A DNA stretch of 43,703 nt, from the NCBI GenBank assembly GCA_043765495.1, contig JAYUJA010000009.1, positions 1 to 43,703 on the forward strand, in the 5' to 3' direction. Shown piece after piece: positions 6,418-37,570 of this stretch; position 1 is the first letter of the stretch; every line of letters begins with the position of its first letter. The position numbers and the translations under genes are program-made. The notes under the pieces are model-generated. The model was given only the letters and a program-made list of their open reading frames with translations. It was not told where the DNA came from and made no database searches. This stretch comes from Bacteroidia bacterium (GTDB lineage Bacteria; Bacteroidota; Bacteroidia; JAYUJA01).

Positions 6418-9141
6418 ATGCAATTTAATACTTCTACTATAGACCAACAAAGCCAACAAAAATGGCAAAAATACGCTATCTATAAAGTAAATAATACCTC
6501 CGATAAGCCAAAATACTATGTGCTAGACATGTTCCCCTACCCATCAGGAGCAGGCTTACACGTAGGACACCCACTAGGCTACGTAGCTTCGGACATATTT
6601 GCTAGGTATAAACGCCTAAAAGGATACAATGTACTACATCCAATGGGCTTTGACGCTTTCGGGCTACCAGCAGAGCAGTACGCTATACAGCAAGGTAAAG
6701 CACCACAAATCACTACCGAAGAAAATATCGCTAATTATAAAAAACAATTAGCTAAAATAGGTTTAAGCTATGACTGGGATAGAGAAGTAAATACCTCTGA
6801 ACCCGCTTATTATAAATGGACACAGTGGATATTTACACAAATTTATAGTAGCTATTTCAATCCCATCATCCAAAAAGCTACTCCCATCTCCGAACTAGAA
6901 ACTTTATTTACGAACGATGGAAATAGTAGCCTAAAACAATACCTAGGTAGAATGCACTCCTGTACTACTGTTTTCAGTGCTATGGAATGGAAAAATTATT
7001 CTAGTATAGAAAAACAAACTATTTTATTGAAATATCGTTTAGCTTACATAGACTATGCGAGTGTAAACTGGTGCGAAGCACTGGGTACAGTACTAGCAAA
7101 CGATGAAGTGATAAACGGACTATCGGAAAGAGGAAACCACCCCGTAGAAAGAAAAAAGATGCGACAATGGTTTTTACGAACTACTGCACTAGCAGACAGA
7201 CTACTCGACGGGCTGGATACACTCGACTGGACAGATGCCTTGAAGGAAATGCAGCGCAACTGGATAGGCAAATCCGAAGGGGCAAGTATTCATTTCCCAT
7301 TAGATAATTCTACTGCTACCATTGAAGTATTCACTACACGCCCCGATACCATCTACGAAGCTACTTTCCTTACTATCGCCCCTGAACACCCCCTAGTAGC
7401 CGCATTGATAGATAGTAGTACTGCCATAGCGGATTATGTTTATAAAGCAAAAAACCGCTCTGATAGAGATAGAATGGCAGAAGTAAAAAAAGTGACAGGC
7501 GTATTTTCTGGATTATATGCTATACACCCATTTCGTAATACTAAAATACCAGTATGGATAGGCGATTATGTACTAGGAGGCTATGGAACTGGTGCAGTGA
7601 TGGCAGTACCCATATCCGATGCACGAGATTTTGCATTCGCTACCGAATTTAATCTTCCTATCCAAGAACCAGAAACCGATACCGACGAAGATATTCCTGC
7701 CCTAAAAGAAAAAGCTATACAAAAAATAGAAGCAAAAGGTATCGGCAAACGTACTATCAACTACCGACTGCGAGACGCAGGATTTAGCCGTCAGCGGTAT
7801 TGGGGAGAGCCTTTCCCTATTACGTACAACAAAGAAGAAATAAATGTAGTACAAGAATTACCAGTTATTTTACCGATAGTAGCAGGATACCAACCCACCA
7901 AAGACGGAAAATCGCCACTAGCAGCTATCACCGAATGGACACACTTACCCGACGGTAGTATACGCGAAACCGACACCATGCCAGGATTTGCTGGTTCTTC
8001 TTGGTACTTTTTAAGATACATGGATCCAACGAATACAGAAAGATTCGTAGGGCAGGGTATAGAAAAATATTGGCAGCAAGTAGATGTATACCTAGGCGGT
8101 ACAGAACATGCAGTAGGACATTTATTGTACGCACGATTTACGCATAAAATACTATTCGATTTAGGGCATGTAAGTGTAGACGAACCATTCAAAAAACTAG
8201 TAAACCAAGGCATGATACTGGGTAGAAGTAGTTTTGTATACTATGATGTAGCTACGAACAGCCTTGTAACGCATTCCTTACTATCGCACTACCCCGAAGC
8301 CATCGCTATACACATCGCTATCCATTGGATAAAAGAAATAAATGGAAAAGATATATTAGATAAAGATCTTTTTATACAAAATAGAAAAGACTATACTACT
8401 GCAAACTGGGTACTAGAAGCCGATGGTAGCTATGTATGTGGGCACGAAATAGAAAAAATGTCTAAATCCAAATTCAATGTAGTGAACCCCGATGATATAG
8501 TAGACAAATATGGTGCAGACACGTTTAGAATGTATGAAATGTTCCTAGGTCCTATCGAGCAGTCCAAGCCTTGGCTTACCAATGGAATAGAAGGAGTGTA
8601 TAGATTCCTACGCAAGCTATGGCGTTTGTTTTACGATGAAAATGATAACTATATAGTAACAGAAGAAATTCCTACTGAAAAAGAACTAGCTATTTTACAC
8701 AAAACCATCAAAAAAGTAGGCGAAGACATAGAACGATTTTCCTTCAATACCTGTGTAAGCTCTTATATGATAGCCGTAAACTCTTTTGCAGAGATAAAAT
8801 GCCATAAAAAAGCAATACTAAAAGATTTCTTGGTACTGCTATCTTCCTTTGCACCACATACTACCGAAGTATTATGGGAAAGTATAGGAGAAAAAGACTG
8901 CATCATAACAGCGGAATTTCCTATTTATAAAAACCAATATTTACAAGAAAGTAATTGTGAATATCCTGTTTCTTTTAATGGCAAAGTACGCTTCAAAGTA
9001 ATACTACCTACAACTATGCCCGCACTAGAAGTAGAAAATTTTATCCGTAGCCATGCACAATTAGAAACACACACAGAAGGTAAAAGCATCAAAAAAATAA
9101 TCGTCGTTCCTACCAAAATTATAAATATCGTTTTGGGATAA
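6418..9141 (+). CDS. leuS: Leucine--tRNA ligase
   Basis: MFPYPSGAGLHVGH, TTRPDT, SRQRYWGEPFP and KMSKS motifs. Start moved to ATG 6418, downstream of TATTTTTG at 6385-6392. Confidence 0.97.
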   Translation: MQFNTSTIDQQSQQKWQKYAIYKVNNTSDKPKYYVLDMFPYPSGAGLHVGHPLGYVASDIFARYKRLKGYNVLHPMGFDAFGLPAEQYAIQQGKAPQITTEENIANYKKQLAKIGLSYDWDREVNTSEPAYYKWTQWIFTQIYSSYFNPIIQKATPISELETLFTNDGNSSLKQYLGRMHSCTTVFSAMEWKNYSSIEKQTILLKYRLAYIDYASVNWCEALGTVLANDEVINGLSERGNHPVERKKMRQWFLRTTALADRLLDGLDTLDWTDALKEMQRNWIGKSEGASIHFPLDNSTATIEVFTTRPDTIYEATFLTIAPEHPLVAALIDSSTAIADYVYKAKNRSDRDRMAEVKKVTGVFSGLYAIHPFRNTKIPVWIGDYVLGGYGTGAVMAVPISDARDFAFATEFNLPIQEPETDTDEDIPALKEKAIQKIEAKGIGKRTINYRLRDAGFSRQRYWGEPFPITYNKEEINVVQELPVILPIVAGYQPTKDGKSPLAAITEWTHLPDGSIRETDTMPGFAGSSWYFLRYMDPTNTERFVGQGIEKYWQQVDVYLGGTEHAVGHLLYARFTHKILFDLGHVSVDEPFKKLVNQGMILGRSSFVYYDVATNSLVTHSLLSHYPEAIAIHIAIHWIKEINGKDILDKDLFIQNRKDYTTANWVLEADGSYVCGHEIEKMSKSKFNVVNPDDIVDKYGADTFRMYEMFLGPIEQSKPWLTNGIEGVYRFLRKLWRLFYDENDNYIVTEEIPTEKELAILHKTIKKVGEDIERFSFNTCVSSYMIAVNSFAEIKCHKKAILKDFLVLLSSFAPHTTEVLWESIGEKDCIITAEFPIYKNQYLQESNCEYPVSFNGKVRFKVILPTTMPALEVENFIRSHAQLETHTEGKSIKKIIVVPTKIINIVLG

Positions 9142-22815: not shown

Positions 22816-25800
22816 ATGAATAATTCTTCCGCCTACCAAGTTATTTTAGATAAATTAGACGCATTCATACGCAAATACTATAAAAATCAAATACTAAAAG
22901 GGATTTTATATACAGCAAGTATCCTTTTGATATTCTATTTGTTAGCTATTGTATTAGAATATTTTTCTCGGTTTAGCCCAGCTATTAAAACAGGCTTGGT
23001 GGGTACACTAGCAGTAGTAAGTGGTAGTATTATCCTGTATTTTATTATCATTCCTTTATTCAAATTATTAAAATTAGGAAAAACCCTCTCCTACGAGCAA
23101 GCTGCCGAAATCGTTGGTAGCCATTTCCTAACCATCAAAGATAAGCTATTAAATACACTACAGCTGAACCAATTAGCATTACAAAAACCTGCTAACATAG
23201 CCCTCATAGAAGCCAGTATCCAACAGCGGACGAATGAGCTGCGCCCTGTGCCTTTTACCAATGCTGTAGACCTAAACGAAAATAAAAAATACCTCAAATA
23301 TTTAGCCATTCCCCTTACTATTTTCTTCTTACTATTCCTATTCTACCGACAAGTAATCACCGAAGGCACTAGCCGACTACTGCAATACAACAAAGAATTT
23401 TTGCCACCAATGCCTTTTTCTTTTCAATTAGAAAACGAAAACTTACAAACCCGTTCCCAGCAAGATTTTGAACTAAATGTAGTAGTGAAAGGCACAGAAT
23501 TGCCCGAAATAGTATACGTAAAAGAAGGAGATGCAAAGTTCAAAACCATTAAAATAGATAATAACCATTTTTCGTATACCTTCCGTAATCCTACCCAAGA
23601 TGTTGGTTTTCAACTATGGGCAGACGGTTGGAGTTCGGATAAATACAATTTGGAAGTATTGCCAAGCCCTTCGTTGGTGGATTTTGAAGTAAACCTATCC
23701 TACCCAGCTTATACAGGTAAGAAAAACGAAGTAGTACAAAATTCAGGCGATTTGATAGTGCCAATAGGTACGACGGCTACATGGAAATTCAAAACCCAAA
23801 ATACAAACGATTTTTCGCTAGTATTTTCGGATAGTAGCCAAAAAACCATTTCCCCAAATACCGAAAACAATTATTCGTATACCGAAAAACTAGTCAAAAA
23901 TAAAAAATACATGGTAGCCGTAGCCAATGAACATTTTCAAGGTAGAGACTCCACCAAATACGCCGTGACAGTAATCCCCGACGCTTACCCATCTATCAAT
24001 ATAGACGAGATAAGAGATTCTCTAAACGAACAAAAAATATACTTTAATGGCGATGTATCCGACGATTATGGTTTCAGCCGCCTTGCATTTCATTATACCA
24101 TTATCAACCCCGATAATCCTGGTCGTAAAGTCGCGAATAGTTTCAACCTTAACGTAGATAAAGCCGTGATAGAAGCACATTTTACCTATGCCATAGATAT
24201 TGGTTCGCTGCCAGTACAGCCAGGCGATGAGATAGATTACTACTTCGAAGTGACGGATAATGATGGTGTTTTTGGTGCAAAATCTGCCCGCTCACAACAA
24301 GGTACTTACCACGTAAAAACCGTAAATGAACTCAAAGAAGAAGTAGAAAATGATAAAGAAATGATGAAAAATGACATGGAAAGTACGCTCAAAGATCTGA
24401 AAAAAATACAAAAAGAAATAGACGAATTGAATAAAAAAATGCTCGATAAAAAAGAATTAGACTATAACGATAAAAAACGGTTGGAAGAGCTAATGAAGCA
24501 AGAAAAACAAATCCAGCAACAGCTACAAGACATACAAAAGCAAAGTACCGACAACCAGAAAGAACAAAAAGAAATGAATAAAAAAGAAAATTATGAAAAA
24601 AGTGAACGAATATTAGAAAAAGAAAAACAAATCCAAGACCTTTTTAATAAAATAATGGACGAGGATATGAAAAAGAAATACGAAGAACTAGAAAAATTAA
24701 TGAAAGAAATGGATAAAAATAAACTGAAAGAACAATTGGAAAAAATGAAAGAAGAAAACAAAGATTTGGAAAAAGAACTGGATAGAACCCTCGAATTATA
24801 CAAACAACTAGAAGTAGAACAACAGCTAGATAAAGTAATGCAAGAACTAGATAAGCTGCAAGAAAAACAAGAAAAACTAGCCGAAGAGTCCAAAAAAGCT
24901 ACTACCAAGCCCGAAGAAATAAAAAAACAACAAGACGAATTGAATAAAAAAATGGACGAACTAAAAGACGATTTGGATAAATTGCAAGAAAAAAATAAAG
25001 AATTAGAAAAGCCTTTTGAATTAGAAGAAACCAAAGAAGAGGAAGAAGAAACCAAAAAAGATATGGAAGAAAGCTCCGAAGATTTGGAGAAAAAAGAGAA
25101 AGAAAAAGCTTCTAAAAAACAAAAGAAAGCAGCAGCAGGAATGGCAAAAATGAAAGATAAGTTGAATAAAATGAAAAAAGATATGGAAGAAGAAGAAGGC
25201 GAAGATTTGGAGAAATTACGTAATCTATTGGAAAATGTAGTCCAGCTCTCCTTCGACGAAGAAAGAATCATGAAACAACTCAAAAAAATAGACATCAATA
25301 ACCCACAATACAAAGAAATAACCAAAGACCAACGTCGACTACGTGAAAACGCTCAAATGGTCGAAGATTCGCTTTTTGCATTGAGTAAAAGGGTGGTAGA
25401 ATTGCAATCCATCATCAATACCGAAATAGCAGATATAAATAGAAATATGGACGATGCACTAGAATTACTAGCCGAAAGATACCTATCGCAAGCTACTGGA
25501 AAACAACAGTTTGTAATGACACATCTCAATAATCTAGCCTTACTATTAAGCGAGATAGTACAAGACAAACAACAAGACCAAGCAGAATCCGAACAGCAGA
25601 TGAAAGGAAACGGCTCGTGTAAAAAACCTGGTGGAAACGGCAAAGGTGGCAAAAAAGGAAAGAAAAAAGGAAACAAACCTTCGCAATCCCTTCAAAGCAT
25701 GCAACAGATGCAAGACCAACTGAATAAGCAACTCAAAGACATGAAAGAAGGGAAAGGAGAAAGCAAAGGCGGTAAAGGTAGCGAAGGCAAACAAGGCAGC

Positions 25801-26217
25801 GAAGGACTAGCACGCATGGCAGCAGAACAAGAAAAACTACGCCAAGAACTCCAAAAAGTAATGCAAGAAATAGAAGAAGGAGGGCAAAAACCTGGTGGGA
25901 ATTTACAAAAAGTAGCCGATGATATGGAAAAAACTGCTACCGACATCGTAAATAAAAACATCACCAACGAAACCCTGAACCGCCAGCAAGAAATAATGAC
26001 CAAGCTACTAGAAGCCGAAAATGCACAAAGAGAAAAAGAACAAGACGAAAAACGAGAAGCCACCGAATCGCCGATTGAAAATAAAAAATCCCCGTCGCAA
26101 TTCATCGAATACAATAAACTAGTGCAACGCCAGCAAGAAATGCTACGAACTACCCCGCCAGCTATGCGAGAATATTATAAGAAAAAAGTAAATAAATATT
26201 TCAATAGTATAAAATAA
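22816..26217 (+). CDS. Large membrane-anchored coiled-coil protein, DUF4175-like (conserved in Bacteroidota)
   Basis: KL..FIRKYYKN, N-terminal TM helices, DKLLN.LQL, SDDYGFS.L and YYFEV.DND motifs; long E/K/Q coiled coil; ends YYKKKVNKYF. Confidence 0.8.
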   Translation: MNNSSAYQVILDKLDAFIRKYYKNQILKGILYTASILLIFYLLAIVLEYFSRFSPAIKTGLVGTLAVVSGSIILYFIIIPLFKLLKLGKTLSYEQAAEIVGSHFLTIKDKLLNTLQLNQLALQKPANIALIEASIQQRTNELRPVPFTNAVDLNENKKYLKYLAIPLTIFFLLFLFYRQVITEGTSRLLQYNKEFLPPMPFSFQLENENLQTRSQQDFELNVVVKGTELPEIVYVKEGDAKFKTIKIDNNHFSYTFRNPTQDVGFQLWADGWSSDKYNLEVLPSPSLVDFEVNLSYPAYTGKKNEVVQNSGDLIVPIGTTATWKFKTQNTNDFSLVFSDSSQKTISPNTENNYSYTEKLVKNKKYMVAVANEHFQGRDSTKYAVTVIPDAYPSINIDEIRDSLNEQKIYFNGDVSDDYGFSRLAFHYTIINPDNPGRKVANSFNLNVDKAVIEAHFTYAIDIGSLPVQPGDEIDYYFEVTDNDGVFGAKSARSQQGTYHVKTVNELKEEVENDKEMMKNDMESTLKDLKKIQKEIDELNKKMLDKKELDYNDKKRLEELMKQEKQIQQQLQDIQKQSTDNQKEQKEMNKKENYEKSERILEKEKQIQDLFNKIMDEDMKKKYEELEKLMKEMDKNKLKEQLEKMKEENKDLEKELDRTLELYKQLEVEQQLDKVMQELDKLQEKQEKLAEESKKATTKPEEIKKQQDELNKKMDELKDDLDKLQEKNKELEKPFELEETKEEEEETKKDMEESSEDLEKKEKEKASKKQKKAAAGMAKMKDKLNKMKKDMEEEEGEDLEKLRNLLENVVQLSFDEERIMKQLKKIDINNPQYKEITKDQRRLRENAQMVEDSLFALSKRVVELQSIINTEIADINRNMDDALELLAERYLSQATGKQQFVMTHLNNLALLLSEIVQDKQQDQAESEQQMKGNGSCKKPGGNGKGGKKGKKKGNKPSQSLQSMQQMQDQLNKQLKDMKEGKGESKGGKGSEGKQGSEGLARMAAEQEKLRQELQKVMQEIEEGGQKPGGNLQKVADDMEKTATDIVNKNITNETLNRQQEIMTKLLEAENAQREKEQDEKREATESPIENKKSPSQFIEYNKLVQRQQEMLRTTPPAMREYYKKKVNKYFNSIK

Positions 26218-29893: not shown

Positions 29894-30727
29894 ATGGCAG
29901 TAAAAATCAGATTGGCAAGACATGGTAAAAAGAGAAAACCTTTTTATCATATCGTAGTAGCCGATGGTCGTGCACCTCGTAATGGTAAATACATTGAGAA
30001 ATTGGGTATCTATAACCCAGTTACCAATCCTGCGACCATTGAATTAGACTTTGACAGAGCATCGTACTGGATGGGCAATGGAGCTATCCCAACCGATACC
30101 TGTAATGCAATATTACGTTACAAAGGCGTACTATACAAAAAACATTTGGACGGTGGTGTTCGTAAAGGAGCATTAACCCAAGAACAAGCAGACGCAAAAT
30201 TAGAAGCTTGGTTAAGTGAAAAAGCTGCTAAAATAGACAGCAAAATCACGAAATTAGCTGACAATAAAGATGCTGACAAAAAAGCAAAACTAGAAGCAGA
30301 AATAAAAGTTAAAGCAGCTGTTGCAGCAAAATTAGCTCTTAAAAATGCTCCAGAAGTAGTAGAAGTAGTCGAAGCAGAAGCACCAGTAGCGGAAGTAGTA
30401 GCAGAAGCACCAGTAGCGGAAGTAGTAGCAGAAGCACCAGTAGCGGAAGTAGTAGCAGAAGCACCAGCAATTCAATTAGTAATAGTAGAAGGAATCGGGC
30501 CAAAAGTACAAGAGTTATTACACGAAAGTGGGATAGTAACAATCTCTGACCTAGCAAGTGCACCAGTAGAAAAACTGAAAGAAGTACTAGACGCAAAAGG
30601 TGGAATATATGCAGCGATGAACCCAGAAACTTGGGCACAACAAGCAGCATTAGCAAGAGATGGTAAAATGGACGAATTGAAAAAATGGCAAGATGAATTA
30701 GATGGCGGAAAAGTCACTAACGAATAA
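29894..30727 (+). CDS. rpsP: 30S ribosomal protein S16 with Ala/Glu/Val/Pro repeat linker and C-terminal HhH (DUF4332-like) domain
   Basis: MAVKIRLARHGKK..PFY.IVVADGRAPR.GKYIE; C-terminal VEGIGPK...L...GI....DLA...ETW.QQA.LA..G...EL..WQDELDGG. Confidence 0.95.
   Translation: MAVKIRLARHGKKRKPFYHIVVADGRAPRNGKYIEKLGIYNPVTNPATIELDFDRASYWMGNGAIPTDTCNAILRYKGVLYKKHLDGGVRKGALTQEQADAKLEAWLSEKAAKIDSKITKLADNKDADKKAKLEAEIKVKAAVAAKLALKNAPEVVEVVEAEAPVAEVVAEAPVAEVVAEAPVAEVVAEAPAIQLVIVEGIGPKVQELLHESGIVTISDLASAPVEKLKEVLDAKGGIYAAMNPETWAQQAALARDGKMDELKKWQDELDGGKVTNE
30374..30467 (+). repeat. 27-bp in-frame tandem repeat, about 3.5 copies (AEAPVAEVV)
   Basis: GCAGAAGCACCAGTAGCGGAAGTAGTA x3 exact copies plus a partial copy. 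Confidence 0.95.
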
Positions 30728-30829: not shown

Positions 30830-30951
30830 AACCTAGTATTTACGAAAAAGTGTCGGAGGGAAGTTATCGAACTTTACTACTGTACCCAGCAGTGGTACTA
30901 AACCTGTGCTTTGTGCTTTCTATCCCACTTCTTCGTAAATACTTGGACGTT
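30830..30951 (+). repeat. 122-bp palindromic element, copy 1 (attC-like recombination site)
   Basis: Begins AAC and ends GTT; arms AGTATTTACGAAAAAGTG / CACTTCTTCGTAAATACT; 5 mismatches to copy 2 at 35108-35229. Confidence 0.85.
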
Positions 30952-30993
30952 GGTGGCAATGAAAAAAAAAATCTCACCTTATACTAATTTTAC

Positions 30994-31030: not shown

Positions 31031-31663
31031 ATGACTAACTTACTAAAAAGCTATGCCGAAACAGGCGATGTAGCAAATACACAGGTAGGAGAAGATTTTT
31101 TGAGTCCAATATTGAATTTCCAACAAAAAGCCAAAGCTACTTGGAAAACAATTACATTTAAGGCATTATGGGAAAATTATCCAAGCAGTACAGTGGAGCA
31201 TTTGGACACAAATAATAATGATATTTATAAAAACCATTGTGCCATTCATTTGAGTGAATCTCTTTTTCAAAGTGGTATAGAATTTATTGGTGATTGTAGT
31301 AAATATTCTTGTCCTAATGGTAGAAGTACCCATATTTTACTTGCAACAAGCCTATCAGTTAAAATTAATGTACAAACAAATGGTATAAAAAATATACTAC
31401 GAAAAGATCTTACTGGTGCAACGTATGAAGCCTATGTAAAAGATAAAACAGGGATAATTTATTTTGAAAACTACTGGAAAAGACCGCAGGAAACAGATGA
31501 AAAAAGAAGTGGTGATCATATAGATTTGTGGAATAAAAATGAACTGGCAAGTAATGGTGTGCTCAAAACTTGGTTAAGACAAGCCTTTCCATCAGTTGCG
31601 GAAAGATTGGGTTCATCTGATTTAACAAAATCTAAAAACGTAATATTTTGGGAAATAAAATAA
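31031..31663 (+). CDS. Tae4-family peptidoglycan amidase effector with shared 21-aa N-terminal leader
   Basis: TF..LW.NYP, NHCAI.LS (catalytic Cys), K.GIIYF.NYW, GDHIDLWN (catalytic His) and V.FWEI motifs; no Sec signal. Confidence 0.8.
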   Translation: MTNLLKSYAETGDVANTQVGEDFLSPILNFQQKAKATWKTITFKALWENYPSSTVEHLDTNNNDIYKNHCAIHLSESLFQSGIEFIGDCSKYSCPNGRSTHILLATSLSVKINVQTNGIKNILRKDLTGATYEAYVKDKTGIIYFENYWKRPQETDEKRSGDHIDLWNKNELASNGVLKTWLRQAFPSVAERLGSSDLTKSKNVIFWEIK

Positions 31664-31926
31664 TAACAAACCTGTTCTTCTTACTTATCTCAATGGTAAG
31701 TAGCATATTGATAGCCTTTGGCATTCTTACTTTAAGAAATGAGAATAAAATCGTTTCATTAATTTTCAATAAAGTTTTAAAATTGAAAAGAACTGCTCAT
31801 TATCAAGGAGAAAGTTTAGCAAATGAAATTTGGGACATTGGGTTATTTTATTTGTTACCTCTTGTTTTCATAATAGTATCCATAATAATTTACTTTTTAA
31901 GAAGATATTTCAAGAATAAGATGTAA
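31648..31926 (+). CDS. Small two-TM membrane protein, candidate immunity protein
   Basis: Overlaps the amidase stop (TTG start; alternative ATG at 31693); two hydrophobic segments; very AT-rich. Confidence 0.55.
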   Translation: MGNKIITNLFFLLISMVSSILIAFGILTLRNENKIVSLIFNKVLKLKRTAHYQGESLANEIWDIGLFYLLPLVFIIVSIIIYFLRRYFKNKM

Positions 31927-31976
31927 ATTACAATTAGTATTTGAGTACCATTTTTCAACCTTAAAACAACAATAGT

Positions 31977-33737
31977 ATGCCCAAAGATTTAAACACCCTC
32001 GTCCTAGAACGCCGTAGCGACCTTACCAACTGTGCTGGTGGCAAGCCCCTCATTACCTTTGGAGGTGGAGATGCCCCTGTACTGGATTATCGTATGCCAC
32101 AATCTACCTCGTTTGACACGTATAGCCCTGTAAAATTAGTTGTAAATGAAAAATGTTGGAGTGCCAAAGCCCTAAAAGTGTACCCGAATGCCTATGCCAA
32201 CCTTACACCATCACAAATAAGTGCAGTAGTAGCACAAAATAGTTCGCAAGTAGTAGATGCTAAACAACCCATTACCAACCTACTGCGTGCAGTAGCTCAT
32301 AACTTGCAAGCAATGGACGATTCCGTGCTTCGTCAAGCTAAAGATAAAGCAGATACCAAACCAAGCCCTACACCCGAAGCTACACCCGATACCGTGTTCC
32401 AGTTGTTCAAAAATGGATATACCGCCCGTTTCTTAAATAAGTTTAATGGCAAAGAACAAACCTTGCTTTTAGAACAACGCCCTACACAAGCAAACCCTAC
32501 ATTATTCGTATTACACAAGTACAAAACCAAATCTTTTTTAGGAAATTATGGTGCAGGGCAAACCATCAGTACATTTAGCCTTTTGCCAGGGGAGAAAACC
32601 ACCATTATAATTAAATCATTTAAAGAAATTTCAGAAGTAAAAACCTCGTCCAGTAATATTGTAGATAGTTTTAGCAAAGAAAGTGCCGATGAAATGGAGA
32701 ATTTGTTAGAGGCGGAAACTTCTACCAATCAATCCAATAGCAACACAGGTACACTCACCACCAACGAAGGCAAAACACGCACCGCAGAAGCCCATTTTGA
32801 TGTAAATGCAAGTTTTAAAATTGCGGGACAAGGTGGCAGTGCCAGTGCAGGCGGTAGCATCAATGGTACAAACTCATCAAACACTACCAATACCGTAAGC
32901 ACGTCTGCGACTTCTGCCCAAAATGCAAAAGATTTGCACAAAGCACTCGAAAAACACGTAAATAAAAGCAATGCCAACCGTACCCATACCATACAGCAAA
33001 GCGACACTACAAGCAGTAAAGAAACGTACGAGAACACCACCACCCGAGAAATAGTAAACCCCAACATAGGACGAGTACTTAATTTTGTATTCCGAAACCT
33101 AAACCAAGGCTATAAAGTGCTTACAAGTTTGGAAGAGATAAAAATAGGATTTACCAACGGACAACCCGAAAGCGAAATAATGGTAGATATAAGTCAGCTT
33201 GATTTTTTGCTAAATGAAGTCCTAAAAAACGATGCAGAAGGCGAAAAGTGCAAACAAACTTTACGGGATTACATTTTTTGCCAATACGGTACAGTTACAG
33301 ATTATAATGGTGTAGAACGCCCTTTTATCCAGCCTCATACCGAGGATAAACCTTGTGGAAATATTTCTTATTTCAGAAAAATACCCAAACTGCAATACTT
33401 TTACAACACCGTTACAGACGAAACAATAACCAAAGAACAAGCTGACGATAAAGGCGTAGCTGGCATATTAAAATTAGCTATGAATGGTGTGATACTCAAT
33501 GCCGATGAATTTGTACTAAAAACCGATGCCGTAATCATTGATGCCCTTTTGGGACACGCTTCTGCGTTAGACTGTTTTAATGCCAATGTTCAAGAAGAAA
33601 AGAAAAATGAATTACTACTCAACAACCTAAAACAAGAACTTGCTTTTGAGACATTGAAGCAAATAGCAGACCCCATAAAACGAGCCGAAATGTATGCCGA
33701 AATGTTTAACCCTCGCCAAACAATCAGCAAGCAATAG
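31977..33737 (+). CDS. Uncharacterised 586-aa protein with Ser/Thr-rich amphipathic core; candidate carrier or pore-forming translocase
   Basis: Long clean ORF. FLGNYGAG.T..TFSLLPGEKT and TTREI.N.N.GR.LNFVFR blocks flank a Ser/Thr/Asn-rich stretch; helical C-terminus; no signal peptide. Function is inferred only. Confidence 0.6.
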   Translation: MPKDLNTLVLERRSDLTNCAGGKPLITFGGGDAPVLDYRMPQSTSFDTYSPVKLVVNEKCWSAKALKVYPNAYANLTPSQISAVVAQNSSQVVDAKQPITNLLRAVAHNLQAMDDSVLRQAKDKADTKPSPTPEATPDTVFQLFKNGYTARFLNKFNGKEQTLLLEQRPTQANPTLFVLHKYKTKSFLGNYGAGQTISTFSLLPGEKTTIIIKSFKEISEVKTSSSNIVDSFSKESADEMENLLEAETSTNQSNSNTGTLTTNEGKTRTAEAHFDVNASFKIAGQGGSASAGGSINGTNSSNTTNTVSTSATSAQNAKDLHKALEKHVNKSNANRTHTIQQSDTTSSKETYENTTTREIVNPNIGRVLNFVFRNLNQGYKVLTSLEEIKIGFTNGQPESEIMVDISQLDFLLNEVLKNDAEGEKCKQTLRDYIFCQYGTVTDYNGVERPFIQPHTEDKPCGNISYFRKIPKLQYFYNTVTDETITKEQADDKGVAGILKLAMNGVILNADEFVLKTDAVIIDALLGHASALDCFNANVQEEKKNELLLNNLKQELAFETLKQIADPIKRAEMYAEMFNPRQTISKQ

Positions 33738-33739
33738 CT

Positions 33740-34555
33740 ATGGGAAATCTAATAAAAAGCTACGCCGAAACTGGCGATGTAGCAGATACGCAGGTGGGGG
33801 AAACTACCATTGCAGATACGAATAGAGTTTTGAATTTCTTTGCAAAAAATAAAGATACAATTCGCTTTGAAAATAAAACTATAAAATGGGATTTCGTACT
33901 CACTGATGCTATGATAAAAAATGGTATTGAAGGAAAATATGATAACGATAGAAATTGTCCTATGTGCTGCTTAAAAGCATTTGCTAGCAACTTATTAGTG
34001 TTATACCCTCATTTGAAAAAATCAGATATTAAGACAAATGATATTATGTCAACTGCTTTAAGCACTCTAAAAAAAGATGAACTCGTTTCTTCTAAAATCA
34101 AAGTTCCACCATTTTACCAAGGAAAGAGATTAACTTCTAAATCTCATTCCGAAGTTGCTTTGGAGGATATTGAGAGCAAAATAAGTGATAGACTTTTAGA
34201 ACTAACACCAGATAAATCTATTTGTGTATTTGCAGTAGGTATAGCGGCTGAATATCATTCAACTTTAATTATAGTTTCTAAAGATACAGAGTATGAAGTA
34301 GATTTAAGCGAGAATGGAACTGAACAAATTTATAGCACAACTAATGATAATCCTTTATTTGTATTCGTAGAAGATAATGGAGGATCTCGTTATTTCAATG
34401 CAAGCGACCTTGATAATAAAATCTCTGAATTTATCAATGGTGCATATGAATATTACAGAGGAGAGAAAGAAATCCAAGGGGCAAGAGGTGTTAATATAAA
34501 TATAGATTATAATTTAGATGCAAATGTTTATCAACTTTTTTATCCAAATCAATAG
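33740..34555 (+). CDS. Putative effector with shared 21-aa leader; possible papain-like Cys-His-acidic hydrolase
   Basis: Leader is 18/21 identical to that of 31031. CPMCC, VGIAAEYHSTLI and FVFVED could supply a catalytic triad. Starts 2 nt after the upstream stop. Confidence 0.55.
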   Translation: MGNLIKSYAETGDVADTQVGETTIADTNRVLNFFAKNKDTIRFENKTIKWDFVLTDAMIKNGIEGKYDNDRNCPMCCLKAFASNLLVLYPHLKKSDIKTNDIMSTALSTLKKDELVSSKIKVPPFYQGKRLTSKSHSEVALEDIESKISDRLLELTPDKSICVFAVGIAAEYHSTLIIVSKDTEYEVDLSENGTEQIYSTTNDNPLFVFVEDNGGSRYFNASDLDNKISEFINGAYEYYRGEKEIQGARGVNINIDYNLDANVYQLFYPNQ

Positions 34556-34558
34556 CCA

Positions 34559-35089
34559 ATGAAGAATAATTTAAAACTATATTTTGTGATTTCTATTTGT
34601 TTTTTATTTACTAATAAATGCTTATGTCAGATAGATTCATTAAATAAAAGTATCAAAAAGGAGTTTGTAAATAGTAAAATTATAAAGAAGAACATTAGTT
34701 TTTTTAAATCTAAATTAGATATTTGTTTCAAGAATCAAATATCTAATTACACAGCAGTAACTTATTATATTTTTAAAAAAATAAGGAGACAAAACGTAGT
34801 ATCTGTACTGACTTTTGATAATGACAGTATTGCAAATCTACAGTTTAATATTTTAGAAAAAGAAGCTAATTTTGTTAGACAAACTCGTAGAGAATTGTTC
34901 CAAGAAATTTGTTATCTACCATTTGGAGGTAATCAGTTTTATTTTGTAACTGTAAAAAGTAATAAAGTATATTTATTTGGCGACAATGGTGGTTATAATT
35001 ATTCATTTGATTTTGAAAATTACAATTTTCAAAAAGCAATTGAACGCCAAAATCCTGAATTATTTCTACTTGTAAAATGCCTAAACTAA
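34559..35089 (+). CDS. Exported protein, candidate immunity protein
   Basis: Signal-peptide-like MKNNLKLYFVISICFLFTNKCLCQ; 3 nt after the upstream stop; very AT-rich. Confidence 0.55.
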   Translation: MKNNLKLYFVISICFLFTNKCLCQIDSLNKSIKKEFVNSKIIKKNISFFKSKLDICFKNQISNYTAVTYYIFKKIRRQNVVSVLTFDNDSIANLQFNILEKEANFVRQTRRELFQEICYLPFGGNQFYFVTVKSNKVYLFGDNGGYNYSFDFENYNFQKAIERQNPELFLLVKCLN

Positions 35090-35107: not shown

Positions 35108-35229
35108 AACATAGTATTTACGAAAAAGTGGCGGAGGGAAGTTATTGGTCTTTACTACTGTACCCAGCAGTGGTACTAAACCTGTGCTTTGTGCTTTCTA
35201 TCCCACTTCTTCGTAAATACTTGGACGTT
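35108..35229 (+). repeat. 122-bp palindromic element, copy 2 (attC-like recombination site)
   Basis: Direct repeat of 30830-30951; starts 18 nt after the last cassette stop codon. Confidence 0.85.
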
Positions 35230-35404
35230 GTATACAAATAGCTTTTTGATTTCCTTTTCTTGTGAAACACTCACTAGCTGTTTCGGGCGACTTCTTTTAG
35301 TTGCATCTATTATTTAATCCACTGCATAAAATAAAAGTATTAAAAAATGTTTTTTTCTATATTTGCACGCAATTAATAACTATTTTCTATAATAAATAAA
35401 AACA

Positions 35405-36016: not shown

Positions 36017-37570
36017 ATGAAAAAAAATTTATTCATTTGCCTTTTGTTAGTACTACAACAAGGCAGCCTATACGCACAGAACTGGAGTAGTAATATAGCC
36101 AATATTGTATATACTAAATGTACACAATGCCATAGAACAGGAAATATAGCACCTTTTGCACTAGAAAATTACCAACAAACCTATAATATGCGGTTTGCGA
36201 TACAGACTTCTATCAATGCAAAACGTATGCCTCCTTATCCTCCTGACCTTACCTACCAACGATACACACACGAAAGAGCCTTAACCAACAACCAACTACA
36301 AAGCCTAAACGACTGGATAAACGCTGGCGCACCCTCTGGTGATCTTGCACAAGCCCCAACTATGCCTAGCTATGAAAATAGTACAGGGCTAGGAATGCCA
36401 GATGTAACCCTACAACTGCCTACCTACACTTCTACCGCAGACTCTACTGATGTGTACAGAGTATTAGTAGTACCCACTGGTTTTACAGAAACAAAAAAAA
36501 TAAAAGCCATCGAAATAGTAGCAGGAAATTCGGAAATAGTACACCACGTATTAGTTTTTGAAGATGTAAATGGCGTGTGTAAAAGCAAAGATGAAGAAGA
36601 CCTAGAAGTAGGGTATAGAGCTACTGATGGAATGGTAAACAACCTATCTGCCGTATTCGTGGCAGGGTGGGCACCAGGAAGTAACGCACTGATAATGCCA
36701 ACTGGCATGTCGCAAAGGATACACAGTGGAGCAGACTTAGCCGTACAAATACATTTTCCAAGAGGCACTATTGGGCAGTCCGACAACTCTAAAATAAACA
36801 TATACTTCGCCGAAGATACCGACGAAAGAGAAGTATTATTCCAGCCGTTACTCATACATACCGCCCCTATACTCACCAATGGGCCATTATTCATACCAGC
36901 TAACGAAACCCGAGATTTCCATGAGCAATTCATAGTAGAACCGTTCACCGATTATAGTGTACTAGCTATCATGCCACACATGCACATGGTAGGCAGGACG
37001 ATGGAGATATATGCCCGCCCTTTCTTATCAAACTCTACTATACCATTAATAAAAATAGACAATTGGGATTTTAGTTGGCAAGGAATATACACTTTCCGAC
37101 AGCCTATAAAACTAGAAAGAGCTACTTCCATACACGCTTATGCACACTACGATAATACTACCAACAACCCGAATAATCCAAACAATCCGCCCCGTGATGT
37201 AAGAGATGGTGAAGCTACTACCGATGAGATGATGCTTACTTTTGTAGCATTTACAAAATACGAATCAGGAGATGAAAATATATGGCTAGAAGATACTACT
37301 ACTCTTTTTGCAAAAATAGAAGAAAGTAGCCTTCCTACATCTGCTATAAAACTATATCCGAACCCCGCTAATAATCTAGTACACCTACAACAAAAAGAAG
37401 ATGCCCTAGCTACAATTTCTATCTACGATGTACTGGGCAAACTAGTAAAACAACAAACTACCAATACAGCCGAAACAAACATAGATATTTCTACTTTTGC
37501 AAAAGGCGTGTATACGCTTCAATTCGTAAATAGTAAAGGCAATAAGAATATAAAATTCGTAAAAGAATAA
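36017..37570 (+). CDS. Secreted copper type II monooxygenase-like protein with N-terminal CxxCH motif and T9SS sorting domain
   Basis: CTQCH...IAPF.L, MPPYP, VHHVL, QIHF, PHMH, WDFSWQ..Y and DEM motifs; C-terminal LYPNPA...IYDVLGK...KGVY...KFVKE. Confidence 0.8.
   Translation: MKKNLFICLLLVLQQGSLYAQNWSSNIANIVYTKCTQCHRTGNIAPFALENYQQTYNMRFAIQTSINAKRMPPYPPDLTYQRYTHERALTNNQLQSLNDWINAGAPSGDLAQAPTMPSYENSTGLGMPDVTLQLPTYTSTADSTDVYRVLVVPTGFTETKKIKAIEIVAGNSEIVHHVLVFEDVNGVCKSKDEEDLEVGYRATDGMVNNLSAVFVAGWAPGSNALIMPTGMSQRIHSGADLAVQIHFPRGTIGQSDNSKINIYFAEDTDEREVLFQPLLIHTAPILTNGPLFIPANETRDFHEQFIVEPFTDYSVLAIMPHMHMVGRTMEIYARPFLSNSTIPLIKIDNWDFSWQGIYTFRQPIKLERATSIHAYAHYDNTTNNPNNPNNPPRDVRDGEATTDEMMLTFVAFTKYESGDENIWLEDTTTLFAKIEESSLPTSAIKLYPNPANNLVHLQQKEDALATISIYDVLGKLVKQQTTNTAETNIDISTFAKGVYTLQFVNSKGNKNIKFVKE

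Follow-up and report, generated by a model that had tools for sequence, protein, structure and literature searches.

Why should two genes of one small island, encoding otherwise unrelated proteins, begin with the same 21 residues? The question is raised by a 43,703-nucleotide (nt) stretch of DNA from a Bacteroidia bacterium (assembly GCA_043765495.1, contig JAYUJA010000009.1; hereafter the window), in which a 21-residue leader heads both a 210-amino acid (aa) and a 271-aa protein, with the gene of an uncharacterised 586-aa protein, here called the hub, lying between them. Our analysis indicates that the leader very probably functions as a tag within a polymorphic toxin system associated with the hub. 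The narrower claim, that it is a trafficking tag coupling polymorphic cell-wall toxins to the hub as their delivery vehicle, has in our judgment about an even chance of being right. The island itself looks like a small polymorphic-toxin unit: a hub and leader-tagged cell-wall effectors, each effector with an exported or membrane-bound immunity protein behind it. Its features are listed below.

31031..31093, forward strand: leader copy 1 (MTNLLKSYAETGDVANTQVGE), N-terminus of the 210-aa open reading frame (ORF)
31031..31663, forward strand: effector 1, 210 aa, leader plus predicted Tae4-family peptidoglycan amidase (Pfam PF14113)
31648..31926, forward strand: 92-aa protein, putative immunity protein, with two hydrophobic segments; overlaps the end of effector 1
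31977..33737, forward strand: hub, 586 aa, uncharacterised family, between both effector/immunity pairs
33740..33802, forward strand: leader copy 2 (MGNLIKSYAETGDVADTQVGE), N-terminus of the 271-aa ORF; starts 3 nt past the hub stop codon
33740..34555, forward strand: effector 2, 271 aa, leader plus toxin domain of an unnamed family, with homologues and Cys/His motifs
34559..35089, forward strand: 176-aa protein, putative immunity protein of effector 2, with a signal-peptide-like, hydrophobic N-terminus

The two leaders, MTNLLKSYAETGDVANTQVGE and MGNLIKSYAETGDVADTQVGE, were identical at 18/21 residues, the same count as in an earlier sequence-only reading of this DNA, and the codon split given there was reproduced exactly: 10 codons differ, 7 of them by synonymous changes and 3 by replacements (T/G, L/I, N/D). 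By the Nei-Gojobori method with the start codon excluded, pS was 0.56 and pN 0.09 (dN/dS 0.09), and synonymous and non-synonymous sites differed significantly (Fisher p 3.7e-4). Nucleotide identity was 81% within the leader, 40% in the preceding 40 nt and 25% in the following 63 nt, and the longest exact DNA run shared by the copies was 12 nt. When the whole 210-aa and 271-aa proteins were compared by BLASTP, a single N-terminal match of 24/42 identities was obtained (E 2e-10, for a single comparison). It included the ILNF/VLNF pair after which similarity had been said to end; nothing beyond the N-terminus was significant (second high-scoring segment pair, E 0.23), and leader similarity extends weakly to about 40 residues. 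The leader match is far beyond chance, and the leader is under purifying selection at the peptide level. This is not a recent DNA duplication, since synonymous sites are almost saturated with changes, the peptide is nevertheless preserved, and the surrounding DNA of the two copies is unrelated; the sequence-only reading had proposed the same.

A functionless leftover of recent duplication or gene conversion could be suspected from the placement of two copies 2.7 kb apart in one island. However, the excess of pS (0.56) over pN (0.09), the 12-nt limit on identical runs between unrelated flanks, the recurrence of the pattern across hub loci and the finding of the same leader type on a third domain in another metagenome (both described below) make this explanation extremely improbable. 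The sequence-only reading had also offered the leader as a homology point for swapping toxin domains. The modular architecture is in keeping with swapping, but a longest shared run of 12 nt is short for homologous recombination. It had further allowed that the true start codons might lie downstream of the leader; 31031 is the sole ATG in the 210-aa frame and the ATG at 33740 stands 3 nt past the stop of the 586-aa gene, so that the starts of both genes are credible. The window's genome assembly comprises 1.92 Mb and is 78.9% complete; a six-frame search of it with a 16-residue motif, allowing up to 5 substitutions, found only the two window copies.

Do leaders of this kind recur beside other hubs? 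A scan of species-representative genomes gave 147 relatives of the hub, from which 80 loci were fetched and ORFs called in all. Among metagenomes, an alignment-based hub query found 16 loci and a single-sequence hub query found none. Similarity confined to the N-terminus was counted between same-strand genes within 7 kb of the hub in 68 loci (1812 pairs), and other genes in 51 of the same loci (838 pairs) served as the control. There were 21 such gene pairs in 11/68 loci compared to 0/838 control pairs. Eight of the 11 loci were leader-type by inspection (the window, L014, L034, L049, L052, L055, L058, and L079), and the remaining three held signal peptides, a helix-turn-helix pair or an unclear case. 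The same leader pattern was seen at L003, L006, and L051, outside the 11-locus count. The gene that immediately follows the hub begins, in most Bacteroidota loci, with a short recognisable motif, such as ..FKNPWG.GG.., ..DFWR.EW.., ..ILDS[YK].. or MGLLDF.., and the largest pooled cluster of N-terminal similarity held 37 proteins from 24 loci. Beside Bacteroidota hubs, leaders are shared by genes of one locus, differ between hub clades, and are joined to different toxin domains.

The window's own leader type was found on a metagenome contig, L086, whose hub is 52% identical to that of the window. A 212-aa gene 3 nt downstream of this hub starts with MGNILKSFRKSQDVANTQVAE, identical to the window's two leaders at 12/21 and 13/21 residues, and its product matched Peptidase_C92, a permuted papain-like amidase family (E 2.4e-11). 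The worry that the motif might be absent from other genomes is removed by this contig. One leader type thus heads three domains: Tae4, the toxin domain of the 271-aa protein, and Peptidase_C92. Likewise, Tae4 stands behind visibly different leaders at the window, L014, L036, L040, L069, L073, and L079, and in a single locus (L034) as many as four different C-terminal regions stand behind one leader. These comparative data, the 21 pairs in 11/68 loci against 0/838 controls together with L086, fit the earlier suggestion of a functional leader, for targeting or cargo loading, linked with the 586-aa protein.

Leader classes were also compared with a quick maximum-likelihood tree of 71 hubs, the classes having been set post hoc by regular expressions after inspection of the data. 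They needed 27 changes on the tree against a mean of 43.9 for 200 label shuffles, none of which was as low (0/200). In the clade of the window's hub (SH-aLRT 98, the Shimodaira-Hasegawa-like approximate likelihood ratio test), downstream genes begin MGLLDSY.., MGLLDFK.., MGSVLDS.. or MINFTDIL... The tree result fits co-variation of leader and hub sequences, although shared ancestry by itself could yield it and in that respect it counts against the coupling. Within genomes, leader copies lay at the hub locus in 2/2 cases in the window's genome and 2/2 in a 100%-complete genome; in a third genome, 4/5 significant leader matches were at the hub locus and one was elsewhere.

These distributions bear on a second scenario, in which the hub would be a pore-forming bacteriocin or an independent toxin and the leader would bind no hub but act in the target cell, either as a pro-peptide or as an import box resembling the disordered N-terminal segments of colicins and pyocins. 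The leaders are short, acidic and likely unstructured, cell-wall effectors need to cross the outer membrane only, and the hub has a weak aerolysin-type resemblance (see below), all of which would suit such a role. However, an import box should track the machinery of the target, and leader classes instead track hub clades; within a genome, leader copies are found almost solely at the hub locus; and no immunity-like gene is assigned to the hub, the small genes following the effectors. We regard this scenario as distinctly unlikely.

A direct mimicry between leader and hub was also considered and rejected. The RVLNF of the leader resembles the hub's invariant SRVLNF strand, and the window scored highest for it (24), but 45 effectors showed no enrichment over 430 controls (means 13.0 and 12.3, Mann-Whitney p 0.13), and the likeness is likely a coincidence.

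What does the leader carry? Effector 1 matched the Pfam family Tae4 (PF14113) at E 2.1e-17 and 63.8 bits (cut-off 27), with residues 66-207 covering profile positions 1-125 of 125, and it also matched phrog_27157 (E 3.5e-23), a family listed as of unknown function. It contains a Cys (..KNHCAIH..) and a His (..GDHIDLW..), which we take to be the catalytic pair of a predicted amidase. No signal peptide was found in effector 1. Effector 2 had no Pfam family. Five homologues were found for its residues from about 50 to 271, one being the C-terminus of a protein named by its source 'RHS repeat-associated protein', and Cys and His motifs are invariant in this domain family. The Atlas clusters nearest to effector 2 were Peptidase_C58/Toxin_15 at 0.93-0.94, which we treat as a lead only. 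The Rhs-type C-terminal homologue, the invariant Cys and His, and the Atlas lead indicate a genuine polymorphic-toxin domain, which probably belongs to the papain-like peptidases.

A candidate immunity gene, assigned in both cases by its position, comes after each effector. The 92-aa product has a hydrophobic N-terminus by our heuristic and no family match in Pfam and NCBIfam searches; a holin hint among PHROGs was at E 0.71. It is putatively the immunity protein of effector 1. The 176-aa protein, putatively that of effector 2, had a weak match to DUF4221 (E 0.0022, below cut-off). The same arrangement is common elsewhere. We asked how often the next 200 nt downstream of a leader gene bring a gene for a protein that the heuristic scores as hydrophobic at its N-terminus; this held for 42/59 testable leader genes, compared to a background of 26% of 1050 other genes. 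In contrast, none of the leader proteins themselves had a hydrophobic N-terminus (0/61). A Pfam scan of 62 hub-neighbour proteins, made up of 59 leader candidates plus 3 partners from other phyla, gave matches in 10/62, and all ten were peptidoglycan enzymes: Tae4 in six and Amidase_3 in two above cut-off, with Tlde1 and YkuD below it. Predicted periplasm-acting enzymes that lack signals, paired with small partners predicted to be exported, are the signature of interbacterial effector-immunity pairs.

In L037, L049, L060, L069, and L083, effectors with a ..GGVDY.NEGAYG.. region in common have behind them members of one membrane protein family (about 100 aa); the two families are a candidate for a new toxin/immunity pair, as judged from their arrangement.

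Which machinery might deliver such proteins? Sheath genes were searched for in six hub genomes: the window's own and five others (G018, G009, G033, G041, and G042), of which three reach 96% completeness or more. TssC (PF05943), the sheath of type VI secretion systems (T6SS), was found in 0/6, as was the phage-type sheath Phage_sheath_1 (PF04984) above cut-off; G018 had two weak sub-cut-off PF04984 matches on another contig. No other contractile-system genes were seen in the listed hub loci. In the Bacteroidota loci, effectors and immunity-like genes are the sole genes conserved beside the hub, and because nothing else is conserved there the leader has no other candidate than the hub for a dedicated partner.

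These results bear on a scenario in which a distinct machine encoded elsewhere (a T6SS, an extracellular contractile injection system (eCIS) or an unknown exporter) would read the leader as its secretion signal and the hub would serve as adaptor, chaperone or co-secreted accessory. Among the classic cargo of T6SS are Tae4, Tlde1 and Rhs-type toxin domains, and in T6SS it is usual for adaptors to be encoded beside effectors. One leader gene lies away from a hub, G018 has its weak sheath-like matches, and the incompleteness of the window's genome leaves room for further genes. However, TssC was lacking in all six hub genomes, including the three that are at least 96% complete, no sheath match rose above cut-off in the same six, and no gene other than effectors and immunity-like genes is conserved beside the Bacteroidota hubs. 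Known T6SS adaptors are small, unlike the 550-700-aa beta-rich hub with its low-complexity insert. We hold a separate apparatus to be unlikely.

If the hub is the partner of the leader, its structure should hint at what it does. Along the family's sequence, residues 21-60 form an N-terminal motif, 81-140 vary, and a strongly conserved core (181-240, 321-400, and 501-540) is interrupted by a gappy insert at about 241-320 that is rich in S, T, G, and N. In the window's hub, the insert (S/T/G/N/A-rich) contains 21% serine compared to 6.9% in the rest of the protein, and an alternating amphipathic strand within it scored z 3.9 against shuffles. AlphaFold models of the whole hub (predicted local distance difference test, pLDDT, 69.6; predicted template modelling score, pTM, 0.63) and of residues 140-530 (pLDDT 71.9, pTM 0.67) were elongated and beta-rich, with very long beta-hairpins, a C-terminal helical hairpin, and two helices flanking the disordered low-complexity insert. 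Two exhaustive, unbiased VIA scans covered 48,161 chains. The top rows were mostly aerolysin-type pore formers, led by Tpp80Aa1 (Z 4.8 and 4.4) and Cry78Aa (4.5 and 4.4), with a Bombina aerolysin-like protein (4.3), lamprey immune protein (4.2), the lysenin pore (3.9), Sip (3.7), Mpp75Aa1 (3.6), the aerolysin prepore (3.5), parasporin-2 (3.3), and monalysin and Cry23Aa1 (3.1) further down; overall the pore formers ranged over Z 2.6-4.8, below the Z of 7-8 that unrelated models typically reach. The re-examined Foldseek list added C. perfringens enterotoxin and BinAB. The named Atlas clusters nearest to the hub were Aerolysin/ETX_MTX2, at 0.76-0.77 and below the noise bar. A profile search of the hub against PDB sequences gave nothing relevant. 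The modelled resemblance to aerolysin-type pore formers is thus weak and below the noise bars of the tools, yet a consistent lead, and that the hub may be an aerolysin-type translocator is a tentative idea that we consider unlikely.

The same models speak to a scenario in which the hub would form a shell or cage with the leader as its cargo-loading peptide, as in encapsulins, the toxin particle being released by lysis or in vesicles. The genetic logic is encapsulin-like, a short terminal peptide being common to genes beside a large structural gene and varying with it, and neither hub nor cargo carries a signal peptide. However, the modelled hub is elongated and beta-rich with long hairpins, and no capsid or encapsulin chain was present in the top 50 rows of any hub fold search, which does not by itself exclude a shell family outside those rows. 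We give a shell only a slim chance.

We return to the reading in which the leader couples cell-wall toxins to the hub as vehicle, with an aerolysin-like pore as its most specific form. A number of observations weigh against it. Hub and effectors alike lack a signal peptide, which leaves their exit from the producing cell unaccounted for. In the window's genome, complete to 78.9%, an unlinked secretion apparatus may have been missed. Most scanned neighbour proteins (52/62) had no Pfam family. A database search with leader residues 1-45 returned the query alone among 4 candidates, by a word-index method that does not show absence, and a mixed hidden Markov model of all leader classes scored the window's leader at only E 2.1, so that homology between classes is not provable. 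Pseudomonadota hub clades have no downstream leader gene. A leader gene of the L034 type (G043:C81:131523-131597, E 1.1e-6) is not on a hub contig; leader-tagged effectors therefore also occur as orphans at a distance from the hub. With respect to the pore, Foldseek with the hub models gave nothing at E ≤ 1e-3 (best E 0.058), the VIA Z for the hub never exceeded 5.0, and Pfam Aerolysin, ETX_MTX2, and Toxin_10 gave no match at E ≤ 1 in 44 hub members. An amphipathic-strand z above 2 was present in only 9/44 of these members (mean z 0.9).

Taken together, we propose that the 21-residue leader would be a trafficking tag by which otherwise unrelated antibacterial effectors are marked for carriage by the 586-aa hub. 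The leader would dock on the hub, and the hub would act as a delivery vehicle, taking effectors out of the producer or into the target independently of contractile injection systems. In its most likely form, the hub would assemble into an aerolysin-type, beta-pore-like oligomer passing the signal-less effectors across the outer membrane to the competitor's peptidoglycan, while periplasmic or membrane immunity proteins would protect kin. Exit from the producer might be by lysis or in vesicles, both of which are guesses. A bolder version casts the hub as a bacterial 'B component': a released pore former that would assemble in competitors' outer membranes and conduct cell-wall enzymes, leader first, into the periplasm. 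We think this version improbable. If true, it would describe a binary bacteriocin system that is independent of secretion systems, has exchangeable enzymatic cargo, and is widespread in Bacteroidota.

Interbacterial toxins are normally found through a known delivery machine: T6SS, the type VII secretion system (T7SS), contact-dependent inhibition (CDI), Rhs proteins, or contractile particles. Here, cell-wall toxins of T6SS type occur in genomes with no detected sheath gene and are tied by a leader to a large, unannotated protein family. The link between leader and hub, if true, would represent a new trafficking route for polymorphic toxins. It would also provide a simple rule for finding effectors, with many new toxin and immunity families to be expected (52/62 neighbours have no known family), and a short tag by which proteins could be loaded onto a natural carrier. 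A hub that served as a protein-conducting pore for bacterial outer membranes would, if true, be a new principle of antibacterial delivery. Our literature search found no description of the hub family or the leaders; supplements and subscription journals were outside its coverage, and an earlier description is possible.

How does the island compare with systems already described? The T6SS markers MIX, FIX, and RIX are domains of roughly a hundred residues and are T6SS-dependent. In the accessible part of the RIX paper (PMC10435454), such markers likewise combine a conserved N-terminal element with diverse C-terminal toxins and an immunity gene after each. Effectors of the marker type include Tae4 and Rhs-type toxin domains among their cargo, as here. 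In contrast to those markers, the present tag covers about 20-40 residues, TssC was found in 0/6 hub genomes, and an uncharacterised 550-700-aa hub is present. In encapsulin systems, a short terminal peptide marks cargo genes beside a large partner gene and varies with that partner, and the cargo consists of metabolic enzymes. The tag logic is shared, whereas the cargo here consists of predicted antibacterial toxins with immunity genes and no capsid-like fold appeared in the listed rows. Payloads of Photorhabdus virulence cassettes (PVC) and other eCIS carry an N-terminal leader of tens of residues that loads diverse toxins into the delivery device. The leader here is similar, but no sheath gene rose above cut-off in the six hub genomes.

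Like the hub model, Tpp/Bin toxins, Cry78, aerolysin, and lysenin are elongated, rich in beta structure and built with long hairpins; they also have an S/T-rich amphipathic insert, whose possible counterpart in the hub family stands out in few members. In the B-component concept, a pore former transports enzymes that are encoded separately and use their N-terminus to recognise it. The hub differs from aerolysin-type and binary toxins in its Z of only 2.6-4.8, in having no sequence match and no signal peptide, and in its presumed bacterial targets; any oligomeric or membrane-active form of it is conjectural. Among Tae4-Tai4 pairs, effector 1 is comparable in that it matches the Pfam Tae4 model, and in L014, L079, and other loci Tae4 genes are followed by related exported proteins of 154-158 aa. 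The window's Tae4 differs in having an extra leader and no T6SS context and in being followed by a 92-aa, two-segment membrane protein. Conserved N-terminal regions fused to varied toxins are also described in Bacteroidota for TANFOR-domain toxins (PMC7073777) and for the Bxa prophage family (PMC11699363). In the accessible parts of these two papers, the regions are whole domains within large proteins, and no separate hub gene is described. The island has the conserved N-terminal element and variable C-terminal toxins of a polymorphic toxin system sensu Zhang et al. 2012, as set out in the accessible part of that paper (PMC3482391). The downstream immunity gene described there may have its counterpart in the hydrophobic-N-terminus followers of 42/59 leader genes, the protective role of which is putative.

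How widespread is the hub itself? No match was found for it in Pfam, NCBIfam or PADLOC, and a PHROG search gave nothing significant (best E 0.004 over 29 residues). A word-indexed search returned 336 homologues; of the 120 that were listed, none had a precomputed Pfam domain, and the named ones were called hypothetical. A profile search of cluster representatives gave 1710 at E ≤ 1e-3, 1166 at ≤ 1e-10, and 756 at ≤ 1e-30. In a sample of one genome per family from the same class, the hub was present in 4/41 genomes, the window's own included. Hub loci were mostly from Bacteroidota, with some from Pseudomonadota, Acidobacteriota, and Actinomycetota. The hubs of L029 and L058, labelled Candidatus Saccharibacteria, were near-identical in the tree to Cytophagales/Bacteroidota ones, and that of L021, labelled Halopseudomonas, to Kiloniella/Rhodospirillales ones. 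All three are probably mis-binned contigs, and the phylum range of the family should therefore be read with care. In five loci of the Pseudomonadota group (L021, L024, L045, L071, and L072), a conserved gene of about 367 aa (MADPTDTP...; about 6800-7960) precedes the hub, and in Actinomycetota loci a conserved gene of about 300 aa lies downstream of it; these partners show that other hub architectures exist outside Bacteroidota. Loci with non-Bacteroidota partner architectures also include L067, L084, and L085.

Natural fusions of hub and toxin were sought in 16 long hub homologues. No toxin domain was found, the matches being sub-significant or unrelated (DUF1508, E 2.3e-5, in one). In the BFVD database, an uncharacterised 642-aa protein of the giant virus Yasminevirus (A0A5K0U6Q4) could be aligned with the hub model across 615 columns (Foldseek E 3.2e-9), which could reflect gene transfer or contamination. 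A phage or defence reading of the island was rejected: PHROGs offered only the family of unknown function for Tae4 and the holin hint at E 0.71, PADLOC gave none, and BFVD gave the one giant-virus protein.

The five genes (effector 1, the 92-aa gene, the hub, effector 2, and the 176-aa gene) form a 4.3-kb island between rpsP and frr, and the island is bordered by direct repeats.

30830..30952: left direct repeat, 123 nt, downstream of rpsP
35108..35230: right direct repeat, 123 nt, upstream of frr

The two copies are 96% identical and are the only full copies in the assembly, which also holds a 28-nt partial copy on contig C112. The repeat folds as a long hairpin (dG -40.9, z -3.6), and an Rfam search of the island including the repeats gave nothing at gathering score. 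The repeats may be insertion scars of the island or a small palindromic mobile element.

Three other genes of the window have unusual products. The ribosomal protein S16 gene (29894-30727) encodes a 200-residue C-terminal extension with four tandem ..EAPVAEVVA.. units and a DUF4332 match (E 2.5e-6). A 1133-aa DUF4175 membrane protein (22816-26217) has about 500 residues that are extremely K/E-rich and coiled-coil-like. Finally, a 517-aa protein (36017-37570) carries a type IX secretion system (T9SS) C-terminal sorting domain (Por_Secre_tail, E 2.2e-15) and a CxxCH motif near its N-terminus, which hints at a secreted haem protein.

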